Source: a bacterium
Lineage (GTDB): Bacteria; Patescibacteriota; Microgenomatia; Daviesbacterales; UBA10151
Reading direction: 5' to 3'
Length of the DNA stretch: 26,083 nt
NCBI GenBank assembly: GCA_021786105.1
Contig: JAJYNW010000022.1
Coordinates: 1 to 26,083 of the forward strand
Part shown: positions 11,695 to 23,524 of the stretch, piece after piece
Layout of the letters: every line of letters starts with the position of its first letter
Numbering within the stretch: position 1 is the first letter of the stretch
The notes under the pieces: model-generated
Database searches by the model: none
What the model saw: only the letters and a program-made list of their open reading frames with translations
Told to the model about the DNA's origin: nothing
Position numbers and translations under genes: made by a program

Positions 11695-11991
11695 ATGAGA
11701 ATTGGAATAGAATTTGAAGCATTTAAAGCTGTTACCATGGAGGGAATTGCAGAATTTCATGCAGCCCAAGTAAAAGCAGACATGAACGGACCTCTAGCAG
11801 ATGTTTGTTGTTTAGTTGGAGGAGTGGTTGGTGGATTTATGGTTTACCCATTCCGCCGCGTAGTAACCGCAAGTCTCCAGAGACGATTATTCAACAAAGT
11901 ACATCTAGAGCCTCCACCCTCCAGGTGGGATAGCTTGACACCTAATCTTTTTTGCCATATTTTAAAGATATGGCTACTAATAGGAAATTAA
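11695..11991 (+). CDS. Hypothetical protein whose 3' end reads through a REP copy and the transposase promoter
   Basis: ATG 3 bp after the previous stop; one hydrophobic segment (VCCLVGGVVGGFMVYPF); C-terminus encoded by repeat/promoter DNA. Confidence 0.4.
   Translation: MRIGIEFEAFKAVTMEGIAEFHAAQVKADMNGPLADVCCLVGGVVGGFMVYPFRRVVTASLQRRLFNKVHLEPPPSRWDSLTPNLFCHILKIWLLIGN
11914..11927 (+). repeat. REP-like palindrome left of RAYT
   Basis: CCACCCTCCAGGTG, the exact reverse complement of 12670-12683; itself a CACC-N5-GGTG hairpin. Confidence 0.75.
11935..11963 (+). promoter_or_regulatory. Sigma70 promoter, leaderless transposase mRNA
   Basis: TTGACA (11935-11940), 17 bp, TATTTT (11958-11963), 6 nt, ATG 11970. 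Confidence 0.55.
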
Positions 11992-12641
11992 TATTTGCTA
12001 ACGATGAGATCTATCATGTCTTTAATAGAGGGATAGAAAAAAGACCAACATTTACAAATAAGTGGGAATTTGATAGAGCGCTCTTTACCTTAAATTTTTA
12101 TAGATTTGCTAAACTGCCTATTAAATTGTCAAAATTTCTAGTACTCCCTAGCGACAAACAAAAAGAATTGTTAGGAGCATTAGAAGATTCTGAAAAACTA
12201 ATTGAAATAATTTGCTTTTGTTTAATGCCTAATCACTTTCATATAATGTTAAAACAAAAGCTGGAAAATGGAATTTCTATTTTTGTGTCAAATTTTACCA
12301 ATAGTTATACAAAATATTTTAATACCAAACATGAACGAGTAGGACCTCTTTTCCAAGGTATATTTAAAGCAGTTAGAGTAGAATCAGATGAACAGTTTGT
12401 ACATGTTTCCAGATATATTCATTTAAACCCAGTTTCTTCTTTTCTCATTAAACCAGAAATACTTAGTACCTACCAATGGTCTTCGTATCCTGAGTATCTG
12501 GGAAATACAAGCAAAAAATTTATAAGCAAAGAGAAAGTGTTAAGCTTATTTCCTTCAACAAAAGCTTATGAAAAGTTTGTTTTAGATCAAGCAGATTATG
12601 CAAAGCAACTTGAGCTAATTAAGCATTTAACATTAGAATAG
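11970..12641 (+). mobile_element. REP-associated tyrosine transposase (RAYT, IS200/IS605-like HUH Y1 transposase)
   Basis: YHVFNRG, FCLMPNHFHI (HUH), YTKYFNTKHERVGPLFQG, RYIHLNPV (catalytic Tyr), YQWSSY; flanked by inverted palindromes. Confidence 0.9.
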
Positions 12642-12669
12642 TTATTAAAGAGTGGGTGCCAATGTAATT

Positions 12670-12683
12670 CACCTGGAGGGTGG
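12670..12683 (-). repeat. REP-like palindrome right of RAYT
   Basis: CACCTGGAGGGTGG, inverted copy of 11914-11927. Confidence 0.75.
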
Positions 12684-12685
12684 GA

Positions 12686-12961
12686 TTATTTGCTTCCTAA
12701 GAATTTCTGGACAAAGTCGTTTAGGTAATTAGACAATCGAGCCACCACAAAAGCGGAAAACAAAAAATCAAAAAAAGGATTTATAATTGGCGTGCCTAGA
12801 AAAATACTAAACAGGCTAATCTGGTAAGCAAAAACCAGTAAAATTGCTATAGCTAAGGACAAAAGGGGGATGTAAGGCCGCAGAATTTGAACATTTCCTA
12901 GCAAATACTCAATAATAGCTTCATTCAAAACCGCAAAAAGGAAAGGTGCAACCCAAATCAT
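12686..12961 (-). CDS. Small multi-TM protein, putative phage holin-like
   Basis: 91 aa, about 3 TM helices; N-terminal E.IIEY and C-terminal ARLSNYLNDF recall small phage holin-like proteins (from memory, unverified). Confidence 0.55.
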   Translation of the reverse strand: MIWVAPFLFAVLNEAIIEYLLGNVQILRPYIPLLSLAIAILLVFAYQISLFSIFLGTPIINPFFDFLFSAFVVARLSNYLNDFVQKFLGSK

Positions 12962-12967
12962 GTTATT

Positions 12968-13288
12968 TTAGGCAGAAGTTTCCTTTCCGGGCGGGAAGGC
13001 GAATTGATAAAGATTAATTAAGGCGCCGATTATTGTCAAAGTATCATCAACCCGCTTTACCGGCTGAGCAGCATTAGGTGGCAGGGAAAGCGCTTGCTTT
13101 TCTTGATTACATTCAAACAGTTTGGATTGAAGGTTGGCAATCTCTTTATCTCTTTCCTGCAAAGCCTCCTGCAAGGTAATTACTTGCTGATTTAAAGAGG
13201 CAAGTGTAGTTTGGAGGTTTTCTATTTGAGATTGCAAAGCTTCCGGTGAATTTTGAGGTTTTGGCGGGTTAAATACTATTTCAGCCAT
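12968..13288 (-). CDS. Coiled-coil hypothetical protein (start set to MAEIVF)
   Basis: Heptad-rich LQSQIENLQTTLASLNQQVITLQEALQERDKEIANLQSKL; C-terminal hydrophobic stretch; 6 bp from the next gene. Confidence 0.7.
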   Translation of the reverse strand: MAEIVFNPPKPQNSPEALQSQIENLQTTLASLNQQVITLQEALQERDKEIANLQSKLFECNQEKQALSLPPNAAQPVKRVDDTLTIIGALINLYQFAFPPGKETSA

Positions 13289-13310
13289 ACATTCGGGCAA
13301 ACTTGGGAAT

Positions 13311-13374
13311 ATACTACAGGAGCAAATTCTACTTGTCAATCATAGTTGACAACAACCAATATTTATTTCACTAT
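13311..13374. promoter_or_regulatory. Back-to-back divergent promoters
   Basis: Palindrome TTGTCAA-N6-TTGACAA (13333-13352) supplies TTGACA on both strands; 17 bp to CACTAT (+, 13369-13374) and TAGTAT (-, 13316-13311). Confidence 0.6.
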
Positions 13375-13395
13375 AGAAAGTAGGGGGTGATAAAA

Positions 13396-13749
13396 ATGCA
13401 AATTCTAATAGCCTTGGTGCTGAATGCAGTAGCCTTATTGGTTACAGCTTACATAGTTCCGGGATTTCAGGTAGCAAATTTCACAACAGCCATACTGGCT
13501 GCCATAGTTTTAGGGGTAGTAAATACTTTTATTAAACCTATCTTAAGCTTTATTTCTGCGCCGTTAACAATTATAACTTTAGGGCTTTTTTCTTTTGTAG
13601 TTAATGCCGTGGTTTTATTTATCGTATCAGCAATAGTACCAGGAGTTAAAATTAACGGCTGGGTTCCGGCAATATTGGCTGCAATCGTGTTATCTGTTGT
13701 TTCAACAATTTTAAACACGGTACTGAAAGATTTGGGAGGAAAGAAGTAA
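13396..13749 (+). CDS. Phage holin family (4-TMS, YvlD-like) membrane protein
   Basis: NAVALL..AYIVPG, VLGVVNTFIKPIL, LTIITLGLFSFVVNA; SD-like GGGGGTG before ATG 13396. Confidence 0.85.
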   Translation: MQILIALVLNAVALLVTAYIVPGFQVANFTTAILAAIVLGVVNTFIKPILSFISAPLTIITLGLFSFVVNAVVLFIVSAIVPGVKINGWVPAILAAIVLSVVSTILNTVLKDLGGKK

Positions 13750-13776
13750 AGTTCTCCAAACGAGCAGTATAATTTT

Positions 13777-14703
13777 TCACTGCTCTTTGTTGCCTGAATG
13801 AAATACTTTGTGCACATCCTTAAGATGGGCATTAGTGACATGAGTGTAAATTTGAGTAGTGGAGATATTCGAGTGTCCCAGCATTTCCTGAACACTGCGT
13901 ATATCAGCTCCGTTAATCAATAAATCTGTCGCAAATGAGTGGCGGAGAGTGTGAGGGGTAGCCTTAACTGAAAAACCAAGTTGTTTGACATATTTTTCCA
14001 CAATCCGCTCAACCGAACGGGAAGTCAATCTCATTGCCTCGCCTCCATCTGCCGGATCAACTTTACCCTGGAAACGAATAAAAAGAGGTTTAAAGGTATC
14101 TTTGCGGACCTCCAGAAATTTCTCCAGCCAATAACAAGCTCCGTCAGATAAAAAAACCACTCGTTCTTTTCCACCCTTACCGACTATACCAAACTCCCGT
14201 CGATTCAAATTTATAGTATCCCTGTTAAGACCGGCCAATTCCGACACCCGCAGCCCGGTTGAAAAGAGAGTCTCCAGTATTGCCCGGTCTCTTATTCCGT
14301 CCACTTTAGCAGTATCAGGAGCCTCTAAAAGCGATTTAAGTTGGGCTTCGTCCAAAACCTTCAAAGGTCTTGGGTCGTTTTCTCCCAATTCAACTTTTTC
14401 CGGGGAGAGCGTGGCAATATCTACTCTGGCCAAATACCTTAAAAATGCCCGCAGAGCTATCATGAAATAATTTTGGGTAATCCTTTTTAAGGGATTTTTT
14501 GTTTTCGGATCAGTCCACCTGGCTAAGTGAAGCCGGTATTTTCTGACTAAACTCAAATCAATCTCTTTCGGATTAATATCACCGGCAAATTCTAAAAACC
14601 TCTTTAAATAATGATCATAATTTCTAATGGTCAGCTGAGAGGTGTTACGCTCCAGCTCCAGGTATTCTAAGAAATCGATGATTAAAGACGAGAGAGCAGC
14701 CAT
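13777..14703 (-). CDS. xerC: Xer-family tyrosine recombinase
   Basis: TGLRVSEL, GKGGKER, HTLRHSFAT, LGHSNISTTQIYTHV give the full R-K-H-R-H-Y set; XerC vs XerD cannot be resolved. Confidence 0.85.
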   Translation of the reverse strand: MAALSSLIIDFLEYLELERNTSQLTIRNYDHYLKRFLEFAGDINPKEIDLSLVRKYRLHLARWTDPKTKNPLKRITQNYFMIALRAFLRYLARVDIATLSPEKVELGENDPRPLKVLDEAQLKSLLEAPDTAKVDGIRDRAILETLFSTGLRVSELAGLNRDTINLNRREFGIVGKGGKERVVFLSDGACYWLEKFLEVRKDTFKPLFIRFQGKVDPADGGEAMRLTSRSVERIVEKYVKQLGFSVKATPHTLRHSFATDLLINGADIRSVQEMLGHSNISTTQIYTHVTNAHLKDVHKVFHSGNKEQ

Positions 14704-14723
14704 AGACTGATTTACCTTTTGCT

Positions 14724-15440
14724 TTAAAGCAATGCCAGCCCCAAAATCCCCAAAATAGTCAAAGCACCGCCAAAAATGGCCAGGGTAAACGTCAATTGCT
14801 CAGACCCGGCGGGAGGCAGGTATGGAGTTTTAGTGGGCAGTGGCATTGTCGATGATGGAGTAGAAATTATTGGCCCTCCGCCTGGACGGGTAGTGGGGGG
14901 TGCTGCAGTCTGGCCGCAAGCTCCTGTTCCAATCGTGTAATTACCATCCACTACAGAATTTAAAGTATCTACCAACGTTCCTCGCTCCACTACGTTAGAA
15001 TCGGTGGTTTTTGCTTTATCCGTAGGAAGAAAATCAAATTTAACCTGGGCTACTCCTGCAGGTGCATTGCTTTGCACCGTAAAATTTACGGTAGCCAAGG
15101 TACCTTTGCTGGAAAAGGGGGTATTGACGGAAGCCAGACCTGAGATAGTAATCCTACCGTTTTGCACATCAATATTATTCCCAGGATAATCCGGGTAAAC
15201 CGTACCGTTTGTGATGGAGGTAGCATTAAACCTTGAAGGATCATAGATCAAAATCGCATCAGTGCCGTCTGTTTGGGTTCCGCCTGTATCCAAAACAACA
15301 TTCAAAGAAAAATTGCAGCCTCTGTTAAACGTGCCGGTGGAAGGCTCAAGGGATAAAGTAGCGGTCTGAGCAAAAACTCCGGCAGGAGAATAAAACAACC
15401 AAAAGGCGAAAGTAAGAAAAAAAAGTAATACCCTAATCAT
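14724..15440 (-). CDS. Cohesin-domain surface protein with signal peptide, P/T linker and LPxAG + C-terminal TM
   Basis: Signal peptide ending VFA; cohesin-like beta-sandwich (LDTGG..TDGTD..LIYDP...G.I.ISG...GTLATVNF...TTDSN); PT-rich linker; LPPAG then hydrophobic tail. Confidence 0.75.
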   Translation of the reverse strand: MIRVLLFFLTFAFWLFYSPAGVFAQTATLSLEPSTGTFNRGCNFSLNVVLDTGGTQTDGTDAILIYDPSRFNATSITNGTVYPDYPGNNIDVQNGRITISGLASVNTPFSSKGTLATVNFTVQSNAPAGVAQVKFDFLPTDKAKTTDSNVVERGTLVDTLNSVVDGNYTIGTGACGQTAAPPTTRPGGGPIISTPSSTMPLPTKTPYLPPAGSEQLTFTLAIFGGALTILGILGLALL

Positions 15441-16078
15441 TGTACCGAAAGCTCTAAATTGCTAACCGTTTCTAATATGTCCTTAGATGTACCCATCTCT
15501 ACCAAATTAGAATCAGTGGTAGCGCCTTTCTTGACAAAATCAATTGTCAAAGTGGTTTGTCCGACCAGTTTAGCTTTCAGGTTTATCACGGCAAATTGCC
15601 CTGAACCCTTAAAGCCAGTTTTTGCACTGTTAACCCCGGAAATATTAATCAAACCTTTATTGACATCAACCGATTGAAGCGGGTATTCATCAAAAATCTT
15701 CCCCTTCACTAATCCGGTCGTTGCTACCGTTAAAATCTTCGGGTCAAAATGGACCACCAAATCAACCCCGTCAATTTCATGCCCCCCGGTATCCACCACT
15801 ACCGAAACAGGCATTGTTTCATTAACTGTAAAGCTGTTTTTAGGAATGCTCAAGGAGATTTTTCCTCCTGTTAGCTGTTGAGCTTCAATTTTACGCACAG
15901 GCAGGGGCGGGGTAGAAATAGGAGTAGTTAAAACCTTAGCAGCGTAGATTAATTCTGCCAATATTATAATCCCCAGTATCGCAAAAATAATTTTGGGGCC
16001 GGAAAATTTTTTCTTAATTTCTCCCGACAAATTATTGCCATTTAATTGATTATTTACTGGTATATTAGAATTTTCCAT
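15437..16078 (-). CDS. Cohesin-domain protein with N-terminal membrane anchor (start set to MENSN)
   Basis: KKKF..PK + TM IIFAILGIIILAELIYAA; cohesin motifs VDTGG..IDGVD..HFDP...G.I.ISG...GQFAVINL...TTDSN, paralogous to the neighbour; ATGA-coupled. Confidence 0.75.
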   Translation of the reverse strand: MENSNIPVNNQLNGNNLSGEIKKKFSGPKIIFAILGIIILAELIYAAKVLTTPISTPPLPVRKIEAQQLTGGKISLSIPKNSFTVNETMPVSVVVDTGGHEIDGVDLVVHFDPKILTVATTGLVKGKIFDEYPLQSVDVNKGLINISGVNSAKTGFKGSGQFAVINLKAKLVGQTTLTIDFVKKGATTDSNLVEMGTSKDILETVSNLELSVQ

Positions 16079-16092
16079 ATATATATATATAT
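16077..16092. repeat. (AT)8 dinucleotide tract abutting the cohesin-gene start codon
   Basis: ATATATATATATATAT read directly from the sequence. Confidence 0.9.
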
Positions 16093-16129
16093 TATGTACT
16101 ACAATCGCCAATTTTTTACCATAAGTTCT

Positions 16130-18892
16130 TTACGGTCTTGCAGTTGAACCGACGTTAAGATTTGATCTGGTTGCACTACCGGTTGCAGCTGGATTCGAAC
16201 TAGAAGGAGCTGACGTACCACCCGGAACCGGTTCTGAATCACTTGAAGCACCATAATCATGCCTCATACAAGCCCAATCGATGGAATTAACCCGGCCGTC
16301 TCCGTTAAAATCTGCCGATCTGCCGGAAGCGCTTCCGGCAATAATCCACTGGCGGTTTAACTCCGCCTTATCCATGGCATTAATCGTACCGTCTCCGCCG
16401 TCAGCCGGGAAAATATCCCCCAAGGGCAAACTGAAATCGCTAACATAAGTCGTACCTTTTCCGGCTGTAAATGAAACTGTCTTTCTCAAAGACCTCGGAG
16501 CTCTCAACGAAAGTTTGTAATTTTTACCTTCTTCCAATTTTTGGCTCAAGCCCTGGATTACTCCTTTGGTATCAATGCTGACTGTTTGTTTGGTAAGAGT
16601 TCCTCCTGCAAATGCACCGGCCAAAACCAGATCAACATCACTGATGGTAGTCGGGGGCGGCCCGCCGCAGAAGAATTTGGCGCCAACCGAAAGTTGGGAA
16701 ATAGCGCTACATTGACCATCACCAGTCTGTTCATCCACATTAGTCAAAGTCACTGGTAAAGCTTCTCCGGTCGGAGCGTTTTGCCAAACCAATTTAATGC
16801 TTTTATCTTTCCATTCTTTAATCGGCAGATCTGCTTCGCCGCTTTTAACTTTTCCTTGATCAGACCCAAAATTTTCTCCTCTCAAAGTTGCAATCGCATC
16901 GCTTCCTTCAAAACTTAAAGAACAGCTGGTAATTTTGGGACTATCACCCAAAAGTTTAATCTGCGCTTGGCACCCCTTTGGACAATCTGCAGTAGTGGAT
17001 ATATGATTATTGGAATCCATAAACTGGACAAAGATGGTCTTGACGCCGGGAGTTTGGTCTTTAAAAGTATAGTCAATCGGACCTTGCTCAGTCTTCACCT
17101 CATAAGTCTTCCAAGACGTCACAATACCGGCATCGTCCAAATCTGCCAAGCTTTCCGCCACCCTGAACTTTTTGGTAGTTACCGGCGAAGGAGGAGCTGA
17201 TGGAGGAGCAGTGGGTGCAGTTAAGCTAACCTCCTGATGACTGCTATTCCCGCAGCCGTTCCAGTTAAAAGTCCTTTGAGAACTCCATAAAGGATTACCG
17301 GTACAAGCATTAGCCATAGCCTTGGCATCATCTGCAAGGTCAGCCGGACGGCAGTGAATAGGGTCATTATTACCAGGTACACAATTTGCCGCAGGCTGAC
17401 CTTTAGAAGTACCGTCTTCAGTAGGCTTCCACATATAAGCATTACAAAGTATGGTAAAACCTTCCTTTTCTTGAGGAATGGGCTTTTCGAGCGAAGGAGC
17501 ATTAGGAGAAGTATCCAAAGTTGCCTTACACCCGCCGCTTAAACCCGTTACATCAGTATTGCAGGTAGCAATTTTATGATAATCACCACCAGACCCTCTA
17601 TCATTGAAATTGTAATATATCTCCATTGTCCTGATGCGAGTATCATTTGAAGTAGCAGAATAGGTGACCTGACTACCTCGAGCCGCAGTTTTAGGACCAT
17701 TAATAGTACACGTCGGACCATTTCCAGTAGACGTTCCAGAACCAATAGTATAAGTAGCTGAACCGCAATGCTGCTTTTGGGCAGTATCACCCCAATAATG
17801 ATTCCAGGTCCCACCACTTACTGCGTTTTGAGCAGTACAGGTGTACTTTCGCCCCCCCACGTCTTGAGTACAATTTCCCACCCCGCCGCTCCAGGTATCA
17901 CCGCCAACCCACTGGTCCTCTTTATTGGCAGAGGAATACTGGAAGATGATTGGATCGCCAACTTTGGGCGAGCTGGGAGTAACACTCAAATTACCATCTG
18001 CCGGACAAGAACCAGGAGTTCCTCCGCCTCCAGTAGTAAAACTCCCGTTCGGAGTACAAGTTCTCGCACCGTTACCAGAACCAAAAGTTAGCGTATGTTG
18101 TGAATCGGCAGCGCCAGCATCAGGCACAGTAAAAGTAAAAGTCGGACCAGAAGTAACCGGATCTGTAATAGAATTCCAACCTCCACCATCCAACTTCCAC
18201 TTCACATTATCCCACTGGTTATTGTAATCTTTTTCACCCTTAACCGATACTTTAAAACTGGAACCTGCTGCCGGGCTATTAGGAATCGTCCAGGAAACTG
18301 AACATTCCTGAGCTGATGGGGGAGTCGTAGCCCCCTGGCTACAACTTAAATCTGAACAACCAGTTATATAGTTACAATAAGCTTGTCCTGCTTCGTCGTT
18401 GTAGCACCATTGAGTATATTGATGACCCGTACAACTTTGTCCATTTTGAGTTGTAGTACACGATTTACTGTTAGAGCCATTAATCAGCAGACTGCCATCA
18501 GCGGCTCCCGTACATGGCACCGGATCTCCCTCTCCGCCAAACGGACAAGCAGCTGCATAAGCTGTTTTTACCAAACCTTGAGATAGAAAGCTCATGATTG
18601 GATTTTTAGATTGGGCTGTTTGGGTAGAGGCTCCGACCGGTGGTCCCAATGGGGAGGTGATCTGAAGAGAAATCTTGGGTTTGGTGGCTACCCAGACACC
18701 ATTACCTTTTTGTTTAACATTAGGTCCGGTAAATACCACCGGATCAGTAGCAGCCCGGGATTTAATAATCTGCTGCATTTGCAGCTGCCTTATACCTAAA
18801 GGCAGTGCCAAAATTAGGATCCCCAAAAGAAGAACACTAATTAAGTTTTTTCTGTTTTTGAAGAAAGTTTTAAATTCTTCTGTTCCTATCAT
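16130..18892 (-). CDS. Large Cys-rich membrane-anchored surface protein with Ig-like/IPT domains and C-terminal X-module + dockerin
   Basis: N-terminal TM + QQIIKSRAA; IPT/TIG-like PKITS...LRGENFG..QGKV...WKDKSI; duplicated Ca-binding loops GDIFPADGGDGTINAMD and ADFNGDGRVNSID. Confidence 0.78.
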   Translation of the reverse strand: MIGTEEFKTFFKNRKNLISVLLLGILILALPLGIRQLQMQQIIKSRAATDPVVFTGPNVKQKGNGVWVATKPKISLQITSPLGPPVGASTQTAQSKNPIMSFLSQGLVKTAYAAACPFGGEGDPVPCTGAADGSLLINGSNSKSCTTTQNGQSCTGHQYTQWCYNDEAGQAYCNYITGCSDLSCSQGATTPPSAQECSVSWTIPNSPAAGSSFKVSVKGEKDYNNQWDNVKWKLDGGGWNSITDPVTSGPTFTFTVPDAGAADSQHTLTFGSGNGARTCTPNGSFTTGGGGTPGSCPADGNLSVTPSSPKVGDPIIFQYSSANKEDQWVGGDTWSGGVGNCTQDVGGRKYTCTAQNAVSGGTWNHYWGDTAQKQHCGSATYTIGSGTSTGNGPTCTINGPKTAARGSQVTYSATSNDTRIRTMEIYYNFNDRGSGGDYHKIATCNTDVTGLSGGCKATLDTSPNAPSLEKPIPQEKEGFTILCNAYMWKPTEDGTSKGQPAANCVPGNNDPIHCRPADLADDAKAMANACTGNPLWSSQRTFNWNGCGNSSHQEVSLTAPTAPPSAPPSPVTTKKFRVAESLADLDDAGIVTSWKTYEVKTEQGPIDYTFKDQTPGVKTIFVQFMDSNNHISTTADCPKGCQAQIKLLGDSPKITSCSLSFEGSDAIATLRGENFGSDQGKVKSGEADLPIKEWKDKSIKLVWQNAPTGEALPVTLTNVDEQTGDGQCSAISQLSVGAKFFCGGPPPTTISDVDLVLAGAFAGGTLTKQTVSIDTKGVIQGLSQKLEEGKNYKLSLRAPRSLRKTVSFTAGKGTTYVSDFSLPLGDIFPADGGDGTINAMDKAELNRQWIIAGSASGRSADFNGDGRVNSIDWACMRHDYGASSDSEPVPGGTSAPSSSNPAATGSATRSNLNVGSTARP

Positions 18893-18986
18893 AAAAAGGG
18901 CCTATATCTAATACTTAACTATTTGGGATTCTTTGTCAACCCCACTCATCCTGAAGTTACCCAGTTTGTAGCTAAAATGTTAGCAC

Positions 18987-20252
18987 TCACTGGCAAGAAG
19001 AAGATTTGCTTTGAAAAACATCATAAGCCTGCTTGGCAGTTCCATTACTGCGCACTAAACTGAAGCCTAAATAACCAGGCGTTCCCGGACTGCAACTGGA
19101 CGTCCAAAGCTCGCACTCGAAGTTATGGTAAAAAGCCGCTTCAATCCAAGGTTTTGAAGCCAGATAATCCAATCCTTCTCCGATTAAACGCGCCTGCTTA
19201 GCTTCATCGTTATTCGTCGGCAAACCCCATTCTCCCAACCAGATCTTTTTATTGGCATCACCTTGGTTGACCATTATATTCCTTATATTATCTACCCCTG
19301 CATAATCGAAGGGTTCCCCATAAGGATCAAGCGCCAACCGATCAAAATAGGGCTGAGCGCCGTGCCCGTACATTGCCACCAGATAATTAGTATTTGCGCC
19401 TGATAAGTGTCCGCCAACAACTACAGCACTAGGCTCTGCAGAACGAACTGCTTCGCTAAAATATTTTAGCCAACCAGTATACCTAACTGGATTATAACCC
19501 CGGCAGTTAGGTTCAATACCATAATCCCAATAGGTTACCTTATCCTTATACCTACTGACCATTGCATAAACCACATCTTTAAATACCTGCACTACTCCCG
19601 CATCATCTTTCAAAACCCGGCAAACGTATTCGGAACTGCAACAATAAGAGTTGTCGATTGGAGCACTCATCTGCCTAACCCAATCCGGAAAACAATCACC
19701 GTCACAAAACTTCACCGCCGGAGTTTGTCCGTCGGCAATTGCATCATTTATATCTTTATCAGTTGAAGTGAAATCAAAAGCAGCGCCCTGATTTGGCTGA
19801 ATAGACTTCCAGGCAACGGGGATAAAACGAAGCGAAGGGTGGGTAAAAAGTTGTTTGATTTTGTCTGTAACCGGGCCATTAAAACCAAAGATATAAGGAT
19901 TATTACAAGCAGCTCTTGGGGTGGCTGTCGGGGTAGGGGTGACGGTTGGTTCAGAAGTACCAAGAGGTTCAATGACAGCTCCAACCGGCGGACCAAGTGG
20001 GGAAGTGAGTTGTAAAGATACTGCATATTTTCCGTTTTGGGATTTGGTAGCTATCCAGGCTCCATTACCTTTTTGTTTAACATTGGCTCCAGCTACAAAA
20101 GTAATAGGATCTACACCAGCCGCCCGGGATTTAATAATCTGCTGCCTTTGTAAAAGACTGATACCTAGAGGTAAGGCTAAAATTAATATACCTAACGCTA
20201 AAACACTGATTAAATTTTTTCTGTTTTTGAAAAAAGTCTTGATATCCTCCAT
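18987..20252 (-). CDS. Membrane-anchored clan GH-A glycoside hydrolase (GH5/GH39-like; start set to MEDIK)
   Basis: N-terminal TM module, PTVTPTPTATP linker, W..IQP..G.FDF, YWDYGIEPN (acid/base Glu), IWLGEWG (nucleophile Glu). Confidence 0.75.
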   Translation of the reverse strand: MEDIKTFFKNRKNLISVLALGILILALPLGISLLQRQQIIKSRAAGVDPITFVAGANVKQKGNGAWIATKSQNGKYAVSLQLTSPLGPPVGAVIEPLGTSEPTVTPTPTATPRAACNNPYIFGFNGPVTDKIKQLFTHPSLRFIPVAWKSIQPNQGAAFDFTSTDKDINDAIADGQTPAVKFCDGDCFPDWVRQMSAPIDNSYCCSSEYVCRVLKDDAGVVQVFKDVVYAMVSRYKDKVTYWDYGIEPNCRGYNPVRYTGWLKYFSEAVRSAEPSAVVVGGHLSGANTNYLVAMYGHGAQPYFDRLALDPYGEPFDYAGVDNIRNIMVNQGDANKKIWLGEWGLPTNNDEAKQARLIGEGLDYLASKPWIEAAFYHNFECELWTSSCSPGTPGYLGFSLVRSNGTAKQAYDVFQSKSSSCQ

Positions 20253-20256
20253 AATA

Positions 20257-21513
20257 TTAATTATTCCGTGTGCTTTGTGATCGCTTCTGCCAATCAATCC
20301 TTTTATACATCAAAGGAAAGTTACTCATATCACTTTCCGGAAATTCCCAAGTCTCCTTTATTTCCTTAGCAATTTCAGTGAAAGGGTCGCCGGGCAGAGG
20401 AGACCCCAGAATCGAACTGTGTCCCACTGAATATGAACCAGGAACAGCGCAAGCCGCCTCTTCTAAATATTCTACTAAATCAGACATTGCCTCCCCATCC
20501 TTGGCAATCTCTTTTGCAGTCATTCCTAAAACCTCGGTCATAATAGCTAGAGAATAGCTGGCCATCCCCACCACTGATCTGCCTCCTTGCCCTTTCCGAC
20601 TCCGTTTCAAGTTATCTACAGCCATATTTAAAGCCTGTCTCAAAGCTTCGATTCGATCCTGCTCACTTTCTAAGAATGGCTTCTCTTTAATTCTGGTCGG
20701 AGTTACCTTAATCTTTTCTGCGCTCTTGGCCTTCATACCCCAAGCCAACCCCGCTTCGGCCACACGCGCTTCTTCCTCTGTACCTTTTAGCAGTTTTGGA
20801 TACCAAGTTTCTCTATCGTGTTCAGTAATACCAGCTTTATTTACACCAGACTCTCGTCCATGAACTTCCCGCCAAGTCCGCCTCATCACTTCTTTCTCCG
20901 CCTTTTCATCTTCCGGTAATTTAATTTTCAAAGTAGGTGCATCATCAATTCTGACTATAAACGATGGACTAACTAAAAGAACATTAGAGTGTGGATCGTC
21001 TACAGCCGATCCATTCATTATTATCCTTACTCCTTCAATATCAGTCTCTACTATCAAATATTCCCTGTCACTTGTACTTTTGACCAATAATGAACCAGAA
21101 GGGATTTTATTCATTCGGTCACCACTCAAAACATCTATCTCCATATGTGGTAAATTTTGCGATGCAGCGATTGTTGGCAACGATCCGCCGGTTACCGCCA
21201 ACCTTCCTCCGTCAGGAGTCGTAACATGAGCTCCTAATTTTCTAAAATAGGTATCCACAAATCTTCTATTGTAATCAATATTAACTTGCGAAAATTGGAT
21301 AACAAAAGCGCTTCTTTGCCCCCATCTTTGCCCTCTGGCCACTGCTTGATCAAAACGGTGCACTGGTTCGTCTAGCCACTCTTTCTCCAAATGTGAATCA
21401 GGCATACTTGCTCGAAGTTCAATATCAGTAAGTACACGAAATAAAGCTTCTTTTCTTTTGGCAAAAGCATCTGGAGTAGGGGATTTTTCTTGTTCTGGTA
21501 TCTGTCCTGCCAT
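20257..21513 (-). CDS. Hypothetical protein (orphan)
   Basis: 418-aa ORF with its own promoter; stop 4 bp before the GH start; no motif recognised. Confidence 0.75.
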   Translation of the reverse strand: MAGQIPEQEKSPTPDAFAKRKEALFRVLTDIELRASMPDSHLEKEWLDEPVHRFDQAVARGQRWGQRSAFVIQFSQVNIDYNRRFVDTYFRKLGAHVTTPDGGRLAVTGGSLPTIAASQNLPHMEIDVLSGDRMNKIPSGSLLVKSTSDREYLIVETDIEGVRIIMNGSAVDDPHSNVLLVSPSFIVRIDDAPTLKIKLPEDEKAEKEVMRRTWREVHGRESGVNKAGITEHDRETWYPKLLKGTEEEARVAEAGLAWGMKAKSAEKIKVTPTRIKEKPFLESEQDRIEALRQALNMAVDNLKRSRKGQGGRSVVGMASYSLAIMTEVLGMTAKEIAKDGEAMSDLVEYLEEAACAVPGSYSVGHSSILGSPLPGDPFTEIAKEIKETWEFPESDMSNFPLMYKRIDWQKRSQSTRNN

Positions 21514-21538
21514 CTGAATTATAAACTAAATCATCTTA

Positions 21539-21567
21539 ATTATGGCTATAGAGCTGGAAAAAAGCAA
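21539..21567 (-). promoter_or_regulatory. Sigma70 promoter of the 418-aa ORF/GH unit
   Basis: TTGCTT (21567-21562), 17 bp, CATAAT (21544-21539). Confidence 0.55.
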
Positions 21568-21639
21568 GGAGAACAATAGTTAATCTCAAAATATTGTACG
21601 ACAACGAAAAACTTATTTAATTAAATCAATTTAAAGCAA

Positions 21640-22512
21640 AACGAGGTGTGAAATATTGCGGATATCGTAACAAAGCAATCAGGAATAATATAACTGGCCT
21701 GGAAGTATGTCAGGAGATTACAGATTACCGGCCGTTAAATAAACAGGCTTTTGGAAGCTTAGGCACTGGTTAAATACTTACTTAAACTTATTAAAAAAAA
21801 TATTTTAAAAAATAAACTCAAAAAAGTTTGCATCTTAGTAAGCTACTTAAGATACCAGCTCCAAAAATTGCTTGTTTTTAACACTTCCGAGCCTGCTGAA
21901 CGCGAAGCCCTAGAAGGCCACAAAAACGGCTGATTAAGGGGAGAGACGCAGGATAGGTCATCTAAGGTTTAGGGCTATAGGAAGCCCTAAAGGTAAAGAT
22001 GGCATATTTTAAAAATCAGCAGCAAAAATACAAAAAATTCCGGTAGGAAATAAACATAAATAAGTTCAAATAAAACTTTATTAAAACTCAGTTACTTGTA
22101 CATTAATTTACCAGATCTAATCCCAAAGGCCTCTCCTCCGGAAAACCCTTCCTTGACGTCGGATAAGATACATTGTACGACATGATAATATAGGGAAGAT
22201 TTAAAAAGGAATAAAAAAGCAAGGACAACAAGAAGTGTAGTGTATTTCTAACTCTTCATTCTTACCGTTTATTCATCTTCATCAGGATTCCTAGTATAGA
22301 AGGGTCCCTCTAAAACTTCAGCACTGTATTTAGCACTTATCCACAAAGCATGCCAGAAAAGAATAAGCCAAATTCTCTCGGAGTAGCAAGGAAGACCCTT
22401 AAAGTACGGAGTACTAAGATACGAAGGATCGCAAGCTTCGCTTATTGTGGCAACGATCACAATAGCAATGTAGTTATCGAGGTCTAACTTCAGTTAGGCC
22501 CTATAGTTTTTA
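21640..22512 (+). ncRNA. Candidate large structured non-coding RNA (family not identified; ends approximate)
   Basis: No credible ORF; many local and long-range helices, most G-U pairs favour the + strand; GCAA loops; ends in hairpin GGTCTAAC-TTCA-GTTAGGCC followed by a T-rich tract. Confidence 0.55.
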
Positions 22513-22602
22513 ACTTTCGTGCCTGTTGACTATATCAAACTATATCAATTAGACTTTTCACGATATTTATCCTAATTTTTCACGCTTCCCCTTTATAAAC
22601 TT

Positions 22603-22623
22603 CCACGGCTTGAAAAGCCGCGG
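22603..22623. repeat. IS200/IS605-end-like palindrome, copy 1
   Basis: CCACGGCT-TGAAA-AGCCGCGG in context AAACT...TTCTT; similar to 25967-25987. Confidence 0.6.
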
Positions 22624-22735
22624 TTTTCTTAATCTTAAGTTTACATCCGTATAATACTGTCTCTCTTCCCCACTTTAGATCGTTATAGCAATATAATTTT
22701 AAGACATTAGCTTCAAATCTTTAAATTTTACTCTT

Positions 22736-23524
22736 CTATCCGCTCCAGGGCGTTGTGAAGAAACCCACCAAAAGCACTATTACCCCAATCCCCACATATT
22801 CCCACACTAACCTCTTGTTTAACCTACCTCTCAGTCCTTCAGTAATTAAGCCCAAAAGCACGTACATAGCTGATGATAAAGACAACGCCCACATAACTGA
22901 AGTTTTAGAAAAAGGCCAGAACGAAAAGCCTAAAGCCAGCTCTCCTAAAATTAGGCTCAAAACAAAGCTTTGCACCAAAGTAACTGTCTTAATCTTATCC
23001 TCCATCTGAATCGACCAAAGCACCTGCAGAATCAGCGGAAAGCTAATCAGGAAAACTACTACTCCATTCCAAAGAAACAATAAATTAAAAGCGAAGGTAA
23101 CATGGTATAAACAGAAAGCTGCAAGCAGTGTGAAAAGGAAACCGGCCGTTGACGCTGCCCGATACAAAGGAATAGTCCTGATACTGGCTACATTAAAGAC
23201 ATTCTGCGCCAACAATAATAAATAGAAAGTTAAACCGAATATAAAAGCCACTGGCAGCCTGGTTAACCATCTAATAGGCAGCAAGAAATAAAAACTGGCA
23301 ACAGCCACTGTAAAAAAAGTTGGCAGAATCATCAGAATTAAAGCCTTGATAACATTTAACCCATCCCAGAGGGACCATAAAGAGAGGCTATATGCTAAAA
23401 CTGCCAATCCTCCCAGGAAACGAAATCTGAGATTAAAATCTACCAGTTGTGTCGAAAGTAGTCCTATAGTTAATAAAGCTGAGCTGATAATTATTTTTTG
23501 TCTTTTGTTGAGAACCAGATTCAT
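22736..23524 (-). CDS. Multi-pass membrane protein of unknown function
   Basis: 262 aa, about 9 hydrophobic helices; NVFNVASIRTIPLYRAA loop; SD GGAGGAG upstream. Confidence 0.85.
   Translation of the reverse strand: MNLVLNKRQKIIISSALLTIGLLSTQLVDFNLRFRFLGGLAVLAYSLSLWSLWDGLNVIKALILMILPTFFTVAVASFYFLLPIRWLTRLPVAFIFGLTFYLLLLAQNVFNVASIRTIPLYRAASTAGFLFTLLAAFCLYHVTFAFNLLFLWNGVVVFLISFPLILQVLWSIQMEDKIKTVTLVQSFVLSLILGELALGFSFWPFSKTSVMWALSLSSAMYVLLGLITEGLRGRLNKRLVWEYVGIGVIVLLVGFFTTPWSG

Follow-up and report, generated by a model that had tools for sequence, protein, structure and literature searches.

OLE RNA (Rfam RF01071) is a large bacterial non-coding RNA with many covarying helices, encoded beside the gene for its membrane-protein partner OapA. 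The datA and DARS loci of E. coli are non-coding clusters of DnaA boxes with an IHF site, in which at least three functional boxes lie within 100-1000 bp. At DnaA-repressed promoters, as at dnaA itself, a DnaA box is placed directly downstream of the -10 element. Here we describe an apparently undescribed, conserved non-coding element of about 0.6 kb that shares traits with each of these systems. It lies in contig JAJYNW010000022.1 of assembly GCA_021786105.1, from a bacterium of the order Daviesbacterales (Patescibacteriota; Microgenomatia), and the whole 26,083-nt stretch analysed (positions 1 to 26,083) is referred to as the window.

Like OLE RNA, the element is present in single copy, contains many strictly conserved nucleotides and adjoins a gene for a multi-pass membrane protein (DUF5656). 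Unlike OLE RNA, it has no sequence or structure match in Rfam, belongs to another phylum, contains a DnaA box and lies beside xer, and its covariation is marginal. With datA and DARS it has in common that it is non-coding, lies outside oriC, carries an oriented DnaA box and keeps a conserved relative distance from oriC (0.36-0.39), but it has one strong box (sometimes two), and blocks A-D, as defined below, have none. The arrangement on its minus strand resembles that of DnaA-repressed promoters, with an extended -10-like motif and a DnaA box within ~13 nt in most relatives. Unlike at those promoters, the putative product would be a long non-coding RNA rather than a protein, and in the window the proximal box is degenerate while a perfect box lies ~185 nt downstream, past an insertion. 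The streptococcal site difSL comprises 31 bp within ~50 conserved bp before xerS (PMC1914069). As there, a tyrosine recombinase gene at the GC-skew terminus is immediately preceded by conserved non-coding sequence, and an 11-6-11 palindrome precedes the recombinase gene in 12 relatives of the window. In contrast to difSL, the conserved unit is 0.55-0.75 kb long, none of its blocks is a recombinase-type palindrome, the 11-6-11 palindrome is external to it, and in the window xer is 7.2 kb away.

Conservation and organization of the element

Two minus-strand open reading frames (ORFs; 20257-21513 and 22736-23524) flank a gap of 1222 nt (21514-22735) in which the longest ORF is 63 aa. This bears out the initial annotation in so far as it had noted 1.2 kb free of credible ORFs, from which it proposed a large, highly structured plus-strand RNA at 21640-22512. 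The gap sequence has one copy in its own genome. When compared by blastn with 40 relatives, it matched 18/18 congeners and 4/6 other genera of the family, in collinear blocks beginning only at gap position ~360. Aligned by MAFFT with 19 syntenic regions (A1, and again with E-INS-i), the window shows six ordered blocks (A-F) in a conserved unit at ~21885-22590 (~0.55-0.75 kb). The limits first proposed are thereby displaced at both ends, with conservation extending beyond 22512 to ~22590. No ORF is common to the aligned relatives and indel lengths are not multiples of three, so the unit is read as non-coding; a 21-codon minus-strand ORF in block A was ruled out, since relatives show 1-4-nt indels there. 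Judged by its conservation, the locus is a real and strongly constrained non-coding feature. The features of the gap, in window coordinates, are listed below.

21514-21872, no strand assigned: left part of the gap, without blastn match in relatives and unaligned in A1; outside the conserved element
21887-21995, minus strand: block A, matched by model R1 at 84.2 bits; invariant AAAACGG at 21923-21929, P2 region at ~21939-21963
21968-21991, minus strand: hairpin P3 of block A, TTTAGGGC/GCCCTAAA
22038-22051, minus strand: block B, rich in purines, with consensus GGACGGGAA from the alignments
22122-22203, minus strand: block C, a pyrimidine run followed by helix P5, GACGTCGG/ACGAC
22172-22181 and 22189-22198: block C, ATTGTnCGAC as invariant core and then TATAGGGAAG, respectively
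22204-22329, minus strand: degenerate counterpart of block D; in relatives AAAGAGGAG, CTCTTCTCC and CTTCGGG stand here in this order
22330-22358, no strand assigned: block E, containing the 9-mer TTATCCACA, a perfect plus-strand DnaA box, at 22337-22345
22360-22498, no strand assigned: lineage-specific insertion, gapped in 16/19 relatives in A1
22493-22590, no strand assigned: block F, matched by model R2 at 85 bits; CCCTATAG, the degenerate box TTTTTAACT and TTCGTGCC
22529-22547, minus strand: two tandem extended -10-like motifs, TGATATAGT on the minus strand; proposed minus-strand promoter
22530 and 22540; 22555 and 22577: block F repeats, CTATATCAA twice and TTTTCACG twice, respectively
22592-22660, no strand assigned: window-specific segment with a terminator-like hairpin (22606-22620) and T run, multi-copy in relatives; outside the conserved unit

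The block C motif ATTGTnCGAC is present in 81/84 sequences examined. In one relative (L030, genome G003) the AT-rich spacer between blocks A and B is filled by about six tandem AAACTATA units.

The locus falls outside the known RNA families. The whole window gave no Rfam match at the gathering threshold, which was not reached by families including OLE, GOLLD, ROOL, HEARO, raiA, 6S, SRP and the group I and II introns, and a search of 21400-22800 at E<=10 returned five chance-level matches only, all with E of at least 1.1. RNase P RNA and tmRNA were ruled out, their genome copies lying at G000:C7:7262-7547 (108.5 bits) and C17:48427-48847 (117.8 bits), and ARAGORN found nothing in the window. 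Full-text literature searches, and one preprint checked for these taxa, contained no description of the locus. Of the first proposal, the long non-coding feature, its novelty with respect to Rfam and its distinction from tmRNA and RNase P RNA have stood, and the size and limits have not; the feature is under strong selection.

Distribution among genomes

Two sequence-only models were used to follow the element, R1 for block A and R2 for block F. R1 found block A in 91/96 genomes of the order (59/63 genera; 75/77 high-quality genomes), nearly always once, and R2 found block F in 85/96. Wherever A and F share a contig, A precedes F on one strand at a distance of 350-650 nt. Of 151 genomes sampled across the class, all eight belonging to the family were matched, plus a few from other families (G126, E 2.6e-11; G034, E 1.4e-6; G148, E 4e-6). 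These three keep the order AAAACGG, ATTGTnCGAC, DnaA box and CTATAG/TATATCA, and their DUF5656 neighbours are just 27-37% identical; the short motifs of the element have outlasted a neighbouring protein that has diverged to this extent. Conservation, single copy, block order and synteny are direct observations at these loci.

A DnaA box and a promoter-like motif

The DnaA box of the element keeps a fixed orientation. Perfect TT[AT]TCCACA occurs on the plus strand in 72/81 elements and on the minus strand in 0/81 (78/81 and 8/81 with one mismatch), against a chance expectation for a perfect box of well below one per hundred elements. The commonest start of the box is 23 nt ahead of the first of two CTATATCA repeats. 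Read on the minus strand, these repeats become TGATATAGT, which fits an extended -10 element (TGnTAnnnT); this pattern is found at the F end of that strand in 80/81 elements versus 26/81 for a control, with exact TGATATAGT in 62/81. Upstream of it on the minus strand the 8-mer CGTGAAAA, seen five times genome-wide, forms two tracts at a spacing of 22 nt. In most relatives the DnaA box is located ~13 nt downstream of the -10-like motif. This genus has a second or replacement box in block E (22337-22345), which in the window is the perfect box that stands ~185 nt downstream of the motif.

From this layout we infer a promoter repressible by DnaA and directed into blocks E to A; the same motifs could be sites bound by proteins, with a role at the DNA level. 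The TATCAA cores beside the DnaA box look similar to the IHF consensus. The several boxes characteristic of oriC, datA and DARS were not found, as most elements have one perfect box and 72/81 have at least one. By eye, TTTTCACG reads as a DnaA box minus one base; this rare 8-mer, with only five occurrences in the whole genome, is also present directly upstream of dnaA. A link to the dnaA promoter was dropped, since CGTGAAAAG is no commoner than a control in 18 congeners and is not near dnaA in G007 or G018.

Position on the chromosome

The element is located at or close to a replichore end. The complete genome G023 reaches its lowest cumulative GC skew at 360-370 kb, with dnaA at 370.6 kb, and the skew is positive up to the element at 664.6-665.4 kb, where it falls from +0.188 to -0.030 between neighbouring 5-kb bins and stays near zero for ~130 kb. 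The same holds for G106 and G107, whose uniformly skewed and co-oriented replichore stops at the element and gives way to mixed gene orientation. The distance between the element and dnaA is 0.36, 0.36 and 0.39 of the genome in G023, G106 and G107, respectively, and the replichores look asymmetric. A zone of near-zero skew and mixed orientation separates the skewed replichores (665-800 kb in G023; at least 100 kb in G106 and G107). In the window itself both skew and gene strand change at ~14 kb, at the xer gene (plus before, minus after).

Because of its skew position and the orientation of the surrounding genes, the element is not oriC: in G023 it is dnaA that coincides with the skew minimum, and positive skew ends at the element, with flanking genes pointing toward or through it. 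The dnaA-dnaN intergenic region (G000:C17:19967-20150) contains several DnaA-box-like motifs and an AT-rich stretch and is likely the oriC of this genome. As is typical of dif sites in single-recombinase systems, the element is found at a skew switch beside xer. A search of the whole genome for the canonical dif core with at most one mismatch found none. A dif core candidate within the element (ATATTGTG-CGACAT-CAAAATAT) was rejected on the indels that its right arm carries in relatives; the true 11-6-11 palindromes, seen in 12 relatives, are external to the element.

Secondary structure and strand

Folding energies are lukewarm, being mildly below those of shuffled sequences without telling the strands apart. 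The minimum free energy (MFE) of 21640-22512 on the plus strand is -190.5 kcal/mol versus -183.0 +/- 6.5 for 20 dinucleotide shuffles (z -1.15; 2/20 shuffles as good), and on the minus strand z is -2.67. Ten homologues average z -2.0 (plus) and -2.3 (minus), and three out-of-family elements give -3.3/-3.35, -1.3/-2.8 and -4.8/-1.9 (plus/minus), with no consistent strand.

The complementary strings from which the initial annotation argued are at the places it gave, as is a T run (CTATAGTTTTT) after 22500, and most of them fail when compared across relatives. The first two of its helices, within 21640-21872, have no counterpart there, and its four consecutive hairpins, with part of AAGGGTC/GACCCTT, fall in the insertion 22360-22498 that most relatives lack. 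Among 20 relatives CCTGC/GCAGG forms standard pairs in 55% of cases, GTCATCT/AGATGGC in 47% and TTCCGG/CCGGAA in 40%, the last two being kept in one relative each. The helices TTTAGGGCT/AGCCCTAAA and CTTCCTT/AGGGAAG fared better and persist in some of the relatives, the latter, which flanks P5, being partly retained in 18 evaluable sequences. With an MFE near that of shuffles, no family-wide RNAalifold consensus and marginal covariation, the description of the feature as highly structured is only weakly supported, and it fails in large part the tests that the initial annotation had itself named for its refutation.

Local structure is nonetheless indicated, because P2, P3 and P5 have clean alternative versions and the lineage-specific insertions are self-contained hairpins. 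In single sequences P2 appears as AGATGACT/AGTCATCT, AGAAGC/GCTTCT, AAGTGGT/ATCACTT or GGATAG/CTATCT, and P3 as GGGC/GCCC, ATTGT/ACAAT or CTTGAT/ATCAAG, while P5 (GACGUCGC/GCGACAUC) is a perfect 10 bp in locus L126 and 8 bp in L127. A possible long-range closing helix between TAGGCACGA in block A and TCGTGCCTA in block F, read by eye, is compensatory in L155 and L200 and lost in L165, L194 and L033-L036.

Motif orientation and wobble patterns are the observations that bear on strand. Within four invariant pairs of P5, pair 6 is C.A in 26 sequences, U-A in 6, C-G in 5 and C.U in 2, so that it is standard in 11/39 on the plus strand and in 37/39 on the minus strand. In P3 the pair 109-126 is A-U in 42, A.C in 33, G.U in 4 and G-C in 1, and is standard in 47/81 on the plus and 76/81 on the minus strand. 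These two positions clearly favour the minus strand. The plus-strand assignment first made from wobble pairs is doubtful, as these clearest positions and the only conserved promoter-like motif all fit the minus strand. We tentatively weigh the minus strand above the plus, partly from the layout of block F.

Interpretation

With somewhat less than even confidence, we tentatively read the element as a single-copy gene for a non-coding minus-strand transcript of ~0.55-0.75 kb with a DnaA-controlled promoter. Transcription, the transcript start, DnaA control and any role are what we infer here. Block F would be the promoter region, combining two phased CGTGAAAA tracts, two tandem TGATATAGT motifs and a DnaA box directly downstream, and DnaA seated at this box could couple expression with the replication cycle. 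The transcript would extend through blocks E, D, C, B and A, co-oriented with yebC-ruvC-DUF5656 upstream of it and with xer downstream. It would present a few short conserved hairpins (P5, P3 and P2) between long AU-rich linkers, with CCGUUUU and GUCGnACAAU as strictly conserved single-stranded motifs, and might act as a free RNA or as a long leader for the downstream gene, ancestrally xer.

A number of results weigh against a structured minus-strand RNA. RNAalifold on 24 family-wide sequences returned E = 0 in 11/11 windows of 100 columns on both strands; it gave -3.55 kcal/mol for the genus alignment A1, and for block A in 80 sequences -9.7 (plus) and -12.4 (minus) kcal/mol with hardly any covariation. 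No Watson-Crick pair was present among the top 45 pairs by average-product-corrected mutual information, and a column-pair stack scan of the alignment gave no Watson-Crick signal; the MAFFT alignments are poor in variable parts, where helices could be missed. For the structure proposed for block A (helices Px, P2 and P3), with pairs counted on an unbiased alignment (A4), pairing cells reach 76.8% versus 75.6% in shuffles (10/500 as high), and the covariation score of 0.200 versus 0.179, reached by 6/500 shuffles, is marginal. The 5' strand of P5 is missing in 45/84 sequences. Some pairs lean to the plus strand, namely P3 113-122 (U.G 25 vs C.A 11), Px (U.G 15-20 vs C.A 8-10) and TATAGGG/CCYTATA (G.U in 10), which also suits the UUCG-like CTTCGG motif and the A-rich linkers better. 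The block A end showed no conserved terminator. Reads of one metatranscriptome did not cover the element, which speaks neither for nor against its transcription.

The conservation might instead reflect an element that acts as DNA, a cluster of protein-binding sites at a replichore end beside Xer genes, which we consider the main rival and somewhat less likely than the transcript. Such a cluster could serve as a DnaA-binding regulatory locus (datA or DARS in outline), as a fork-arrest or termination region or as a Xer accessory sequence, its conserved blocks being the binding sites and its AT-rich spacers providing bending or spacing. Conservation resides mainly in primary sequence, in short asymmetric blocks, some of them repeated (CTATATCA and TTTTCACG twice each, TAGGCAC twice direct and once inverted), and the spacers are variable, down to the tandem AAACTATA array of one relative. 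Structural support is weak on both strands, and in P2 the G.T and A.C intermediates are about equal (14 vs 11; 12 vs 12). The fixed-orientation DnaA box in 72/81 elements and the presumed IHF-consensus likeness of the TATCAA cores point the same way. So does the setting, at a skewed replichore end in G023, G106 and G107, 0.36-0.39 of the genome from dnaA, with a Xer-type gene adjacent or 4.7-7.2 kb off and, in 12 relatives, an 11-6-11 palindrome between element and xer like that of difSL before xerS (PMC1914069). That palindrome, however, is outside the element, there is a single strong DnaA box only, and the change of skew near the element in G007 is gradual. Compensatory hairpins and hairpin-shaped insertions are unexpected for plain duplex sites. 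A 0.6-kb unit with about six blocks in fixed order also far exceeds the known dif or Ter sites in size; AAAACGG and ATTGTnCGAC are non-palindromic and are not known to match any site.

A large ornate plus-strand RNA ending at the hairpin and T run after block F appears improbable. Several wobble positions do fit the plus strand, where CTTCGG would form a UUCG-type loop, the A-rich linkers have an AT skew of ~+0.2 and, by eye, GGAGGAG/CTTCTCC pairs with G.U. Terminator-like hairpins follow block F on this strand in the window and some relatives, the L128 homologue has z -4.8 (plus) vs -1.9 (minus), and in 12 relatives a conserved TTGTCA upstream of block A, also read by eye, faces away from the adjoining xer promoter. 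There is nevertheless no promoter-like motif upstream of block A that is conserved family-wide, and a plus-strand RNA would have to accommodate A.C mismatches in 33/81 (P3) and C.A in 26/39 (P5), a window z of only -1.15, and transcription head-on against the flanking genes and replication. Least probable of all, in our judgement, is that the element is no gene of its own and forms a long intercistronic segment of a yebC-ruvC-DUF5656-(element)-xer operon transcript, its conservation serving to process, stabilize or translationally control the flanking genes. It does share its strand with all its neighbours, in several relatives block F begins no more than ~15 nt from the stop codon of DUF5656, and a Xer308-type gene follows ~0.5-1 kb after the element in three other families. 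Yet the element shows no change where 4.7-7.2 kb and other genes separate it from xer, it is kept where the adjacent recombinase has its own promoter (TTGACA-N18-TATTAT), and the promoter-like motif of block F suggests a start of its own.

If the transcript exists as we favour, a wider proposal can be made, which we regard as unlikely: that it represents a new class of large housekeeping RNA, single-copy and universal in Daviesbacteria and present in other Microgenomatia, which has a DnaA-gated promoter at a replichore end and works with the DUF5656 protein and/or Xer, linking the replication cycle to chromosome resolution or division. Bacteria of the candidate phyla radiation have tiny genomes with little non-coding DNA. 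Nearly every genome of the order keeps one copy of the unit despite this scarcity, and constraint this strong usually signifies an RNA that is essential or a chromosomal site of key importance. The element would be new either way, as a replication-coupled large RNA or as an unknown type of chromosome-maintenance site, and either would offer a concrete handle on replication termination and chromosome resolution in these uncultured organisms.

Neighbouring genes and other sequences

Two genes accompany the element in the window.

22736-23524, minus strand: DUF5656-type membrane-protein gene (262 aa, multi-pass), the constant neighbour on the block F side
13777-14703, minus strand: XerC/D-type tyrosine recombinase gene (Pfam Phage_integrase and SAM_1), 7.2 kb beyond block A

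The 262-aa protein falls with DUF5656 clusters of the ESM Atlas both by features (0.96) and by structure (TM 0.96-0.97); Pfam and NCBIfam gave no match for it or for the 418- and 436-aa neighbour proteins. The DUF5656 gene adjoins the element in 22/22 further in-family loci and 3/4 out-of-family loci, its stop codon being the one that block F closely follows in several relatives, and beyond it lie ruvC and yebC. Between the element and the xer gene of the window are cohesin and dockerin genes. In G023, G106 and G107 orthologues of this xer, 75-77% identical, are 4.7-5.6 kb away from the element, and in the three out-of-family loci its orthologues are within ~1 kb.

A 345-aa tyrosine recombinase, different from the xer of the window, directly adjoins the block A side in 12/20 aligned relatives (L018-L032). 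Directly upstream of its start codon all 12 have an 11-6-11 palindrome (e.g. TGAGTATAA-GGTTGA-TTATACTCA), of two sequence types, and also the near-consensus promoter mentioned above. This palindrome, next to the element, is a dif-like or operator site. In the window an 8/10 palindrome, TACTTGTCAA-TCATAG-TTGACAACAA, occurs at 13330, and perfect 10-6-10 palindromes with nearly the same arms occur at G000:C20:15618 and G000:C22:55620 (GTTAAAGTAA-GGTTGC-TTACTTTAAC and GTTGAAGTAA-CTAACG-TTACTTCAAC); the latter two resemble the recombinase-site palindromes of the relatives. An IS200-like Y1 transposase gene (11952-12641) and a holin-family gene (13387-13749) lie near the xer gene. No direct repeat of the element end was found in 12600-22100, and an island with att repeats was dropped as an explanation for this reason.

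Two short segments look, from their sequence, like small repeat or mobile sequences. One, at 22592-22649, belongs to the window-specific segment, and the other, at 22415-22446, is a part of the insertion that by blastn resembles a short multi-copy sequence of relatives. Both have many matches in the genomes of relatives at 80-94% identity, some of them at contig ends, and one relative (G006:C13) has three tandem ~28-nt copies of such segments. Farther from the element, 18677-18880 and 20040-20249 are linked by direct repeats, 51 and 132 nt long and 77-86% identical, which show that the 920-aa dockerin gene and the 436-aa ORF have a paralogous segment in common.

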